Shown piece after piece: positions 1 through 2,587 of a stretch of 8,120 nucleotides of DNA. The stretch lies in IMG/VR virus record IMGVR_UViG_3300026224_000022. One strand, written 5' to 3'. This DNA comes from a virus (lineage: Duplodnaviria; Heunggongvirae; Uroviricota; Caudoviricetes). The position numbers and the translations under genes were made by a program. Every line of letters begins with the position of its first letter. Positions within the stretch are counted from its first letter, which is position 1. Below the pieces are notes generated by a model. That model made no database searches, had not been told where the DNA came from, and saw nothing but the letters and a program-made list of their open reading frames with translations.

Positions 1-86
1 CTGGAAAGGCTGGGCCATATTCCTCCGGCAGAAGCAGAAAAAGCTTATTATGCTTCCATCGGAAATACTGATCTGGCAGCCTGAGT

Positions 87-308
87 TCACAGATAAAACA
101 CTCTCCAGGAAACCCGGGGCGGTTCAAACTGCTCCAGCCACTGTTCTGTCGTGTTATAAACCCAGCGAATTCCGCCATGCTCAGTGCCTGAATTCGTTTC
201 ATTCAGCCAGTAATGAAGCTGCTGCAACACAATTGCCTCATTCAGACCAATACGGCATGCAAGATCACGATTTATCACAATGGGCTGGGATGTCATTAAC
301 AGGCTCAT
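87..308 (-). CDS. Small 73-aa protein, possible HTH/winged-helix DNA-binding protein (could be the N-terminal part of a replication-type protein)
   Basis: ATG at 308..306 preceded by AGAGG about 6 nt upstream; stop TGA at 89..87. Translation MSLLMTSQPIVINRDLACRIGLNEAIVLQQLHYWL... has a helix-turn-helix-like pattern. Codons in 201..239 are E. coli-like (CAG, CTG, GTG). Lies downstream of the cro/cII-position genes, where lambdoid phages carry replication genes. Confidence 0.55.
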   Translation of the reverse strand: MSLLMTSQPIVINRDLACRIGLNEAIVLQQLHYWLNETNSGTEHGGIRWVYNTTEQWLEQFEPPRVSWRVFYL

Positions 309-317
309 GACCGACCT

Positions 318-656
318 CTATTTCCCTGAATTTACGATGAAACTGTTCGAGCGGACTGAAGCATTCATGTTCATAGCCTTCACGGAGGTAGATAACCCGT
401 TGTGTTTCCGGCTCCCAACGAATGACTCTGACGGGCACTCCGTAGTGATCTTTGAACCAGCGGTTAACTTGTCGCAAAGGACTGTCTCCTTCTGCCGGTT
501 GAAATCCCCCACAGCCCACTCTGCAAAGCTGTGGGTTACAATTTCCCTGTCACCTGGTACATTCACTGCATAGCAATACTCCACCTTCGCTTTTCCACCC
601 GGTACAGGAAGCGCAATCAGTTGCGAGCGACGGTAGTGTGTTGTTAAACTGTTCAT
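318..656 (-). CDS. Hypothetical protein, 112 aa as drawn; the 3' half may be out of frame (see findings)
   Basis: ATG at 656..654 overlaps the TGA of the upstream gene (ATGA overlap), with GGAG about 10 nt upstream. The first ~60 codons use strongly E. coli-like codons (CGT, CGC, CTG, GCG, CCG). The last ~45 codons are Ser/Thr/Asn-rich with mixed rare codons, while the overlapping minus frame 265..519 looks more protein-like there. Confidence 0.45.
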
Positions 657-1294
657 GCGTTAGTTTCTCCACAACCAGAAGCAATCGACGCCACGACGCC
701 CGGAGCTGCACACTCGCGGGCGTTACTCTTTTCCGGCGCACAAAAAACACGAAATAACAGTGTTAAATGCTCCTGCCACTTCGCCATTACTTGGTAGCTG
801 TTCTCTTCGATTTGCTCACGCTCAGCTTGGTCAATAACTCCATCAGCAGTTGCCTTGCGTAAGTACTGGGAATGCTTGCCAATCCATTCTATTGACTCCA
901 TCAGCCGCTGATTAATGTCACCATTGTCAATGTCATCAATGACCACCAGCGGCACAAACACCCCATTACTACGACGGGCTATTGCATCCGTTACATGCCT
1001 GGTACCACTGGCATCCTGTAAAACCATGGCCCACTCAAGTGGAAAAATTTGATCCCCACCGCTACGCAGTCTGTTATGCAATTGATCTTTTGCTGGGGTG
1101 ATATCATCAGATTTATACAAACCAAGAATTTCTGCTGCTTCCTCATAGCCATGAGGTAAATCAGCAATCGTTCTTCGTATTGCTGCCACCAGCCATGCTG
1201 GTTGCTTATCAACTTTCCATTCAGGTTCTTTACCCACGTTTAAGCCCTCATATCTGTGGTTTCTGTAAATCGATTTATCCATTAGATTTTTCAT
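653..1294 (-). CDS. CII-position regulatory protein, 213 aa (possible phage CII/YdaT-type regulator)
   Basis: Long ORF immediately downstream of the cro-like gene on the same strand. I place the start at ATG 1294..1292 ([12 protein letters not shown]...), overlapping the cro 3' end; an alternative ATG is at 1282. The track start at 1351 lies inside cro and is unlikely. Functional call rests on position plus a weak by-eye resemblance to phage 186-type CII proteins; not verified. Confidence 0.7.
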
Positions 1295-1475
1295 AAAGCT
1301 CAGGTTTAAATGGCAACCGTCCGCAAGTTCTATATGCAGCCTCTGCTGCACGTCCTTTTGGAATTAACTGGCCAGGACGGTTTCGCCACTGATAAACGGC
1401 TTCAGTTGTTATGCCGAAAAAAGCAGCAACTTTCTCAATGCTGCCGAAGTAGCTTTCGATATCGTCAGTCGTCAT
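1275..1475 (-). CDS. Cro-like HTH transcriptional regulator, 66 aa (YdaS/Cro family)
   Basis: ATG at 1475..1473 preceded by GGAGG about 4 nt upstream on the minus strand. Translation MTTDDIESYFGSIEKVAAFFGITTEAVYQWRNRPGQLIPKGRAAEAAY... shows an HTH followed by the QW-x-n-IP motif typical of YdaS-like Cro proteins. Divergent from the repressor gene across a 97-bp AT-rich operator region. Confidence 0.8.
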   Translation of the reverse strand: MTTDDIESYFGSIEKVAAFFGITTEAVYQWRNRPGQLIPKGRAAEAAYRTCGRLPFKPELYEKSNG

Positions 1476-1572: not shown

Positions 1573-2199
1573 ATGGAAACGGTTGGTCAGCGTATAAAAG
1601 CTCTGAGAAGAGTTACCAGAACGTCCCAGAAAGAATTGGGTAAATTTTGTGGAGTAAGTGACGTTGCTGTGGGGTACTGGGAGAAAGACATCAATGTCCC
1701 TGGTGGAGAAGCACTTTCAAAATTAGCGAAGTTCTTCAATACGTCAATAGATTACATTCTTTATGGTGCGGAGTTTGAAGGCAAACTCGTCACAAACATG
1801 CGCAGAGTTCCTGTAATCTCGTGGGTTCAGGCTGGGCAGTTTACTGAGTGCAGGACAGCAGAAGTGTTTAGTGAAGTAGACAAGTGGGTAGATACATCAT
1901 TAAAGATTGGTGATAACTCATTTGCATTGGAGGTTAAAGGCGACTCCATGACTAACCCTAACGGCCTCCCAACAATACCAGAAGGCGCAACAGTGATTGT
2001 AGATCCTGATGCAGAACCCCGGCATGGAAAAATAGTCATCGCTAGACTTGATGGAACAAACGAAGCCACAGTAAAAAAATTAGTTATCGATGGCCCTCAA
2101 AAGTTTTTAGTGCCATTAAATCCCCGGTACCCCAACATCCCGATCAATGGTAATTGCCTCATCATTGGTGTAGTCAAAGGAGTTCAATACGAACTCTAG
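1573..2199 (+). CDS. CI-type phage repressor, 208 aa (N-terminal XRE-family HTH plus C-terminal S24 LexA-like autopeptidase)
   Basis: N-terminus METVGQRIKALRRVTRTSQKELGKFCGVSDVAVGYWEKD is a canonical XRE HTH. Ala87-Gly88 in VQAGQF (nt 1831..1836) is a candidate RecA-stimulated cleavage site. Ser125 in GDSM (nt 1945..1947) and Lys168/169 in VKKL form the catalytic dyad, spaced as in LexA and lambda CI. Divergent from a cro-like gene. Confidence 0.9.
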   Translation: METVGQRIKALRRVTRTSQKELGKFCGVSDVAVGYWEKDINVPGGEALSKLAKFFNTSIDYILYGAEFEGKLVTNMRRVPVISWVQAGQFTECRTAEVFSEVDKWVDTSLKIGDNSFALEVKGDSMTNPNGLPTIPEGATVIVDPDAEPRHGKIVIARLDGTNEATVKKLVIDGPQKFLVPLNPRYPNIPINGNCLIIGVVKGVQYEL

Positions 2200-2279: not shown

Positions 2280-2383
2280 TTTTATATCAAAGATAACGAA
2301 CAGGCAGGACGCCCACGAAGTAGCCGCCGGTGGCGTATGAATGACCGGATGATTCGTTAAATACTATGTGTAAGAGAGCGCAA

Positions 2384-2587
2384 ATGAACCGTTATTTCAC
2401 ATGCTCGTTTTGTGGCGCAAACGAGCTGCAGGCAAAAAAAATCATCGCCAAAGGCGGAAAAGATGAAGTTGCTATCTGCTCTGAGTGCGTAGTCTTGTGT
2501 GTCGGGGCATTAATCAATATCAGCACAACTATTCAGTTCACACCAAATGAGAATGCGCCTTTAGATGCGCGGAAATCTGGAGGTTAA
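2384..2587 (+). CDS. Small protein (67 aa) resembling the ClpX N-terminal C4 zinc-binding domain
   Basis: ATG at 2384 with AGAGAG 5 nt upstream (track start 2366 has no SD). MNRYFTCSFCGANELQAKKIIAKGGKDEVAICSECVVLCVGAL matches the ClpX ZBD pattern as I recall it (CSFCG ... K/R-x-I-A ... IC-x-EC-V-x-LC), with all four Cys present. No AAA+ module follows. Confidence 0.75.
   Translation: MNRYFTCSFCGANELQAKKIIAKGGKDEVAICSECVVLCVGALINISTTIQFTPNENAPLDARKSGG

Follow-up and report, generated by a model that had tools for sequence, protein, structure and literature searches.

Overlapping genes read out of frame from the same strand are familiar in phages, as in lambda Rz/Rz1, in phiX174, and in the lysis gene of MS2. 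Here we analyze such an arrangement in 8,120 nucleotides of the Caudoviricetes record IMGVR_UViG_3300026224_000022 (the whole stretch is hereafter called the window), which corresponds to the immunity-replication region of an e14/mEp460-type lambdoid prophage of Escherichia coli. On its minus strand, ymfM (318..656, 112 codons) and a gene coding for a DUF4222 protein (265..477, 70 codons) have 318..477 in common, where ymfM codons 60–112 run one base out of register with DUF4222 codons 1–53. As in the Rz/Rz1 kind, an inner gene with its own ribosome-binding site lies in a different frame of the same strand of a lambdoid phage. The difference from that kind is that DUF4222 is not fully nested (it extends 53 nt past the end of ymfM) and that the outer frame is apparently constrained only to stay open.

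The closest described locus is that of the K-12 prophage e14, where a cI-like repressor, a cro-like gene, ymfL, ymfM, and a replication gene follow each other in the same order as in the window, and where a TTG-started DUF4222 open reading frame (ORF) of 59 codons is also embedded in ymfM. It differs in its replication gene, which in the window is of another type and cut by an insertion sequence. The K-12 ymfM is described as the SOS-inducible division inhibitor of e14 and was proposed to be SfiC, the ORF cloned in pBAD24 leading to filamentation and loss of FtsZ rings (bioRxiv 10.1101/2020.11.19.390815).

A simpler version of the locus is found in Yersinia phage YeP1 and Providencia phage PSTCR8lys. 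These share the order CII-like gene, small N-domain gene, DUF4222, and replication gene, but the small genes are merely adjacent, with ATGA or 11-nt junctions and no long overlap. In the YeP1 type, one ATGA joins the end of the upstream gene to the start of DUF4222, and another joins the end of DUF4222 to the start of the replication gene.

The locus of the window is probably best described as two same-strand, out-of-frame overlapping genes in the early rightward operon of this type of prophage, with the ymfM frame selected to remain open. Both frames are coding, the start of DUF4222 is fixed and independent, the ymfM frame avoids stop codons, and the position of the ymfM stop is fixed.

Conservation of the Two-Frame Layout

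The collection of about 300 related loci comprised 166 unique sequences, which fell into 21 clusters at 93% identity; the most distant share 51% nucleotide identity with the window. The 163 unique sequences that carry DUF4222 all have it in the −1 frame of ymfM, and none has it in frame. The same layout is present, at ≥80% coverage, in 2,001 of the 5,426 complete E. coli genomes.

The ymfM gene begins with an ATG (656..654) that overlaps the TGA of ymfL as ATGA (653..656), an overlap kept in 21/21 clusters, and is preceded in the window by a GGAG at 670..667. The sequence-only reading had named this ORF with its ATGA coupling and its GGAG, and its coordinates hold. YmfM of the window is 96% identical over 112 aa to K-12 b1148 ("cell division inhibitor YmfM") and matches phrog_1170 over positions 1–112 of 112. 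The 112-aa protein has no match in Pfam, and NCBIfam holds no model for YmfM or for the DUF4222 protein. The ymfM ORF is open in 163/163 unique relatives, with a length of 111–117 codons.

The −1 frame is open in the window from 549 to 265, after a TGA at 552..550. Its product matches Pfam PF13973 (DUF4222) with 67 bits for a cut-off of 27 (E = 1.1e-18, profile positions 1–52 of 53) and also matches phrog_1343. It had been noticed earlier as protein-like, which these matches place far beyond chance, and had been delimited as 265..519 with a GTG start and no Shine-Dalgarno (SD) sequence. The frame was right but the start was not. The gene starts at a TTG (477..475), 8 nt downstream of an AAGGAG (491..486) that had been missed, and ends at a TGA (267..265). 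The same TTG is the start chosen by the NCBI Prokaryotic Genome Annotation Pipeline (PGAP).

This start occupies one fixed position in 21/21 clusters, as ATG in 15, GTG in three, and TTG in three, the TTG being confined to three E. coli-type clusters that include the window. Counted over the 163 unique sequences, there are 82 TTG, 48 ATG, and 33 GTG. A purine-rich SD-like motif precedes it by 7–13 nt in all clusters, with variants such as GGAG, GGGAG, and GAGGAGG outside the window's cluster, and is weak in one relative (L205). The AlphaFold model of DUF4222 residues 1–55 has a predicted local distance difference test score (pLDDT) of about 90 and shows a generic small beta-barrel of SH3/KOW/Tudor-like type, for which Foldseek returns weak matches (best E = 7e-3). 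In the Yersinia YeP1 and Providencia phages, DUF4222 is an ordinary gene, separate from its neighbors.

In the E. coli type, the AAGGA of the DUF4222 SD sequence can pair with a UCCUU just before the TTG, forming a hairpin of 5 bp (475..491), and translation of DUF4222 may, given this hairpin and the weak TTG, depend there on ribosomes reading the ymfM frame. The other clusters do not conserve this hairpin. The idea of an RNA structure hiding the DUF4222 start was rejected, as only this small E. coli-type hairpin was found and none is conserved.

Selection on the Two Frames

The two parts of ymfM evolve differently. In codons 1–59 (478..656), nucleotide diversity among the 21 clusters is 0.24/0.25/0.39 by codon position in the ymfM frame, and mean amino-acid identity is 64%; this N-terminal domain evolves as a protein. 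In the overlap, diversity is 0.26/0.23/0.52 by codon position of DUF4222, peaking at its third position, and over the same bases mean amino-acid identity is 62% for DUF4222 versus 39% for the YmfM tail. Hence, the Ser/Thr-rich, rare-codon tail of YmfM is DUF4222 read out of register. The change of character after about 60 codons, pointed out from the sequence alone, is therefore real. Homologs do keep an ORF of 111–117 codons in one frame, which the sequence-only reading had named as part of a finding against a broken gene; the other parts turned out otherwise, since the tail is poorly conserved and the 265..519 frame matches a family.

The predicted structure of YmfM shows the same division. 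Residues 11–60 (pLDDT 73–83) form three strands and two helices, the N-terminal ~66 residues being modeled with moderate confidence, and the tail is predicted to be disordered (pLDDT <50). There is also a family of 63 aa, phrog_20047, that consists of the YmfM N-terminal part alone. A structure search with the N-domain gave no match. The stand-alone 53-aa gene of YeP1 is a weak, probable relative of the domain (hhalign probability 37%).

If the tail is not conserved as a protein, one may ask why it is open. A Val, Leu, or Ile codon of DUF4222 ending in TA or TG creates a stop in the ymfM frame when the next codon starts with A or G. Among the 21 clusters, Val/Leu/Ile codons preceding a codon that starts with A are xTY (xTT or xTC) in 60/60 cases, whereas before a codon starting with a pyrimidine they are xTR in 24/88 (Fisher p = 1.2e-6 against 0/60). 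Counting alignment columns instead of sites, xTR occurs in 0/5 versus 7/8 (p = 0.005).

The same avoidance is seen along the phylogeny. Stop gains were analyzed by parsimony combined with mutational opportunity, under an assumed transition/transversion ratio (kappa). The 163 sequences require at least 273 synonymous changes, among which 0 stop gains in the ymfM frame are observed and 8–25 are expected (8 at kappa 6, 25 at kappa 1), a deficit with P = 3e-4 to 4e-12. The control was the clade of Yersinia phage YeP1 and 33 relatives, which has no long overlap. There, stops come and go in the +1 frame of DUF4222; the model predicts 3–10 gains, and three gains and three losses are seen. Since these gains are as predicted, the phylogeny-aware null behaves properly where there is no overlap. 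The evidence of selection within the overlap thus differs by frame: it consists of amino-acid conservation for DUF4222 and of stop avoidance only for ymfM. An overlapping frame selected only to stay open, with its amino acids drifting freely, is the unusual feature of this otherwise well-supported case of same-strand overlapping phage genes.

The End of the ymfM Frame

The position at which ymfM stops is as regular as its start. In 17/21 clusters the stop lies 3–18 nt before the start of the next gene, and in the other four the next gene has an ATG overlapping the DUF4222 stop, with the ymfM stop 8 nt beyond it. The rule holds across several unrelated downstream genes, mostly of replication type. 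In the window (306..320), the junction reads TAG-AGGTCGGTC-ATG, with the TAG at 320..318, a 9-nt spacer that includes AGG, and the replication-gene ATG at 308..306. The two genes share a frame in the window and in the 17 clusters, with the stop and one to six sense codons, mostly three, between them, so that read-through of the TAG would fuse YmfM to the replication protein.

With entry at the ATGA of ymfL and exit at the ribosome-binding site of the replication gene, the geometry points to translational coupling. In the reading as two overlapping genes, ymfM begins at the ATGA on the ymfL stop, codes for the N-terminal domain of about 60 residues, and then runs on, one base out of register, over the whole of DUF4222. 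The DUF4222 protein (70 aa, a predicted small beta-barrel) has its own initiation at the internal AAGGAG and TTG (477), and selection purges stops from the ymfM frame up to the point beside the replication-gene start. Under a coupling mechanism, the ribosomes coming from ymfL and ymfM would pass over the embedded gene and come off at the ribosome-binding site of the replication gene, a case of termination-reinitiation coupling. Within the model of two overlapping genes, that the tail is kept open for such coupling is a real possibility, to which we give somewhat less than even credence. Alternatively, still under that model, it may be the YmfM protein that needs a disordered tail of fixed length. 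The more specific idea that the 3′ half of ymfM is a "bridge" frame, stop-free to carry ribosomes across DUF4222 and not for the protein that it encodes, is tentative and rather doubtful.

Alternative Explanations

From the sequence alone, the locus had been taken for a possible frameshifted or decayed gene. Its two frames would indeed be joined into a protein of about 130 aa by a −1 shift between 549 and ~470, and programmed −1 frameshifting or transcriptional slippage could in principle produce such a fusion of the YmfM N-domain with DUF4222. The frame relation suits a −1 shift, the −1 frame of the window is open for 24 codons upstream of 477, G5 run (506..510) included, and an AAGGAG lies near the junction. 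SD-like sequences can stimulate frameshifting, as in dnaX. The likeness to dnaX/IS3-type −1 sites ends with the 0/−1 frames and the nearby SD-like sequence, since the window has neither slippery heptamer nor stimulatory structure and DUF4222 has a start of its own. The earlier remark that no canonical slippery heptamer is visible is confirmed: no X XXY YYZ heptamer occurs in the −1-open zone of the window or of any of the 21 clusters, and four clusters lack even a partial slippery motif. There is no conserved RNA structure either (RNAalifold consensus −3.8 kcal/mol, five pairs, none at the junction; z = −0.95 for the window). The −1 frame has no more than 1–24 open codons ahead of the DUF4222 start, and in most clusters it is shut 1–9 codons before the start, unlike at dnaX/IS3-type sites. 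It is open for only nine codons in the main E. coli type, because GGGTGAT creates a TGA where the window has G5. With a conserved start and SD-like motif in the DUF4222 frame besides, frameshifting as a conserved mechanism is largely refuted, and as an account of the locus it is very improbable.

Natural in-frame fusions of the N-domain and DUF4222, made by one extra G in a G run, do exist, in two proteins of the collection. One (P0002, L353) is of the window type with G6 and lies on one 42.7-kb contig; the other (P0088, L350–L352) circulates in another lineage, the mEp460 type, has one G added to its G6 run, and appears in 47 indexed blocks of the collection. A fused polypeptide is hence viable and tolerated, although exceptional. 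Such fusions also bear on the suggestion of a frameshift mutation, a sequencing error, or a decaying pseudogene of a former single-frame gene, for which single-frame fused proteins among database matches speak, as does the fact that the prophage is defective elsewhere, its replication gene being cut by an IS3-family element. When the conceptual fusion of the two frames was used as a query, the best single-ORF matches were mostly singletons with a different junction in each, which fits sporadic indels or assembly errors, and they were rejected as representatives of an intact ancestor. A mutated or misread single gene would also have to account for one layout in 2,001 complete E. coli genomes and in all 163 unique relatives, however divergent, and for purifying selection on both halves, each in its own frame; this explanation is scarcely credible. 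In sum, the invariant layout, the fixed start, and the absence of heptamer and structure make programmed frameshifting, recent mutation, and sequencing error poor explanations. The view of a frameshifted or decayed gene must thus be given up: fused relatives are rare, and the −1 frame is closed upstream of the inner start. Of the earlier list, the alternative of two genuinely overlapping genes is supported.

A different objection is that the tail of ymfM is an accidental run-on of no selective value, so that one has in effect two adjacent genes, the N-domain and DUF4222. This would explain why the tail is unconstrained in amino acids, with diversity highest at ymfM second codon positions, and why it is predicted to be disordered. 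It also agrees with the simple tandem layout with ATGA junctions in distant relatives, with the +1 frame of DUF4222 being often open even where no ORF lies upstream, and with Entomohabitans, where DUF4222 is deleted and the ORF ends after 78 codons. An accidental run-on would, however, gain stops at the expected rate, as the control clade does and the ymfM frame does not, and it would predict neither the strict avoidance of stop-making codons at the dangerous dicodons nor a ymfM stop always beside the next start codon. It is accordingly unlikely. The plus-strand ORF 280..573 (97 aa), which the earlier reading could not exclude on composition alone, exists in the window and is in codon register with DUF4222. 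Few stops are to be expected in an antisense frame that shares the register of a real gene. The ORF has no Pfam match, stays open for anything between 41 and 113 codons, with one to four stops, across clusters, and runs opposite to the whole operon; the probability that it is a real gene is close to nil.

Several points weigh against the interpretation as two overlapping genes. The genes of e14-type prophages are repressed in lysogens. No proteomic or ribosome-profiling data were found for either product, and no ribosome-profiling paper mentioning ymfM was found. The YmfM tail shows no amino-acid constraint, so that a role for it at the protein level would be putative; the coupling role is suggested only by the geometry. 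A null based only on codon usage (P_open of about 0.02 per cluster, 1e-35 jointly) overstates the case for openness. Its size is distrusted because about 60% of the control-clade sequences have an open +1 frame in DUF4222, with no ORF feeding in, and it was judged inflated and replaced by the phylogeny-aware test. The strength of the latter depends in turn on the assumed transition bias, and the direct comparison of stop gains, 0/273 versus 3/162, is borderline (p about 0.05 by estimate).

Variant Loci and Rejected Sites

Two sites were considered as places of slippage and rejected. The G5 run, within a Val-Gly-Asp stretch (GTGGGGGAT), is the only place in the window where a one-base slip or insertion would fuse both frames. 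It is not conserved: the fetched loci of E. coli type have GGGTGAT in 140 cases, G5 in 17, and G6 in one, the dominant type thus having a TGA there. The A_AAG site at 452..449 and the slippery heptamers are not conserved either, the Lys codon being replaced by Arg in relatives.

Seven unique relatives (L006, L027, L147, L112, L143, L151, and L155) have a single nonsense mutation in a DUF4222 frame that is intact otherwise, at codons 7, 22, 24, 26, and 40; three of these are independent events at Trp7 (TGA twice, TAG once). The ymfM frame is open in all seven. These relatives could hint that the loss of DUF4222 is tolerated or favored in lysogens. The contrast of seven nonsense mutations in DUF4222 with none in ymfM was not retained as evidence, since it is marginal once mutational opportunity is taken into account (P = 0.01–0.11). 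In Entomohabitans teleogrylli (L009), DUF4222 has been reduced by an internal deletion to a remnant of 17 codons (VQPVDHFRERFKRVDR); the shortened ymfM-type ORF still adjoins the start of the replication gene.

Salmonella phage ST64B and phage mEp460 have a longer form of the outer ORF. In sb41 and gp41, an ORF starting with MNSLT follows a ymfL-like gene and, like the ORF of the window, crosses a DUF4222 gene in its −1 frame, here with a GTG start. The homologous frame is open across DUF4222 in these phages too, a point in favor of two overlapping genes. The difference is that their ORF is ~385 codons long and goes on to encode Ash (PF10554) and Rha (PF09669) domains, whereas the ORF of the window stops before the replication gene. 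Both genes (sb41, L303 1058..2215; gp41, L304 1052..2203) are annotated "transcriptional regulator." An internal start is possible in both, with a candidate ATG at codon 63/65 behind GGAAGGGG. In the contigs of the mEp460-type fusion (P0088), the Ash gene is called separately, with its start inside the 3′ end of DUF4222.

Genomic Context and Annotation

The DNA of 200..720 matches 2,675 of the 5,426 complete E. coli genomes, i.e., about half. At ≥99% identity there are 129 matching records, and phage mEp460_4F5 matches at 99.2%. Upstream of ymfM lies ymfL (653..1237, minus strand), the gene of a CII-like regulator that is recognized by NCBIfam NF041471 (181 bits), phrog_101 ("CII-like transcriptional activator"), and PGAP. 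A cro-like gene (1275..1475, minus) and the cI-like repressor gene of the LexA family (1573..2199, plus) follow. Just past the repressor gene, an ORF of 73 aa (2366..2587, plus) has two CxxC pairs (CSFCG ... CSEC) and looks like a small protein of the zinc-ribbon or ClpX-type zinc-finger kind. No match was obtained when the window was scanned for Rfam families and tRNAs.

On the other side, the minus strand carries the 5′ remnant of a DnaD/O-like replication gene (126..308; phrog_6493, "DnaD-like helicase loader"). Compared with the intact gene of a relative (L001), which codes for 330 aa, it is cut after ~61 codons by an IS3-family insertion sequence, the end of which occupies 1..125. Sequences matching this end occur at ~25,000 places in E. 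coli genomes and carry the annotation IS3 family transposase. The prophage of the window is hence replication-defective.

The locus is annotated in two ways. In near-identical genomes, PGAP calls the 70-codon DUF4222 coding sequence (265..477) and leaves a gap of 176 bases (478..652) without a gene, ymfM being absent. RAST and the K-12 annotation contain only the 112-codon ymfM ORF; in the K-12 RefSeq record (NC_000913.3 1203822..1204180; L349 2323..2681), ymfM is listed and the embedded DUF4222 ORF is not. PHROGs treats the 112-aa ORF, the first 63 residues of it, and DUF4222 as three families. Since the evidence indicates that ymfM and DUF4222 are both real, either annotation on its own, that of K-12 and RAST or that of PGAP, loses one gene.

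Implications for Division Inhibition and Genome Annotation

Within the literature covered, no paper was found on the overlap of ymfM and DUF4222 or naming the two together. A search by terms of the preprint on the K-12 division inhibitor likewise returned no mention of an embedded gene and no protein-level work (bioRxiv 10.1101/2020.11.19.390815). The K-12 fragment cloned as ymfM also includes the SD sequence and the TTG of DUF4222, with 53 of its 59 codons. Since it carries most of DUF4222, the clone does not decide which polypeptide blocks FtsZ.

Should the 3′ half of ymfM indeed be open only to carry ribosomes across DUF4222, the division block attributed to SfiC may need only the 60-residue N-terminal domain of YmfM, or else it may come from the embedded DUF4222 protein. 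More generally, a locus found in about half of the complete E. coli genomes carries two mutually exclusive annotations. Being clean and well sampled, it can serve to test methods of overlapping-gene detection and to study translational coupling.

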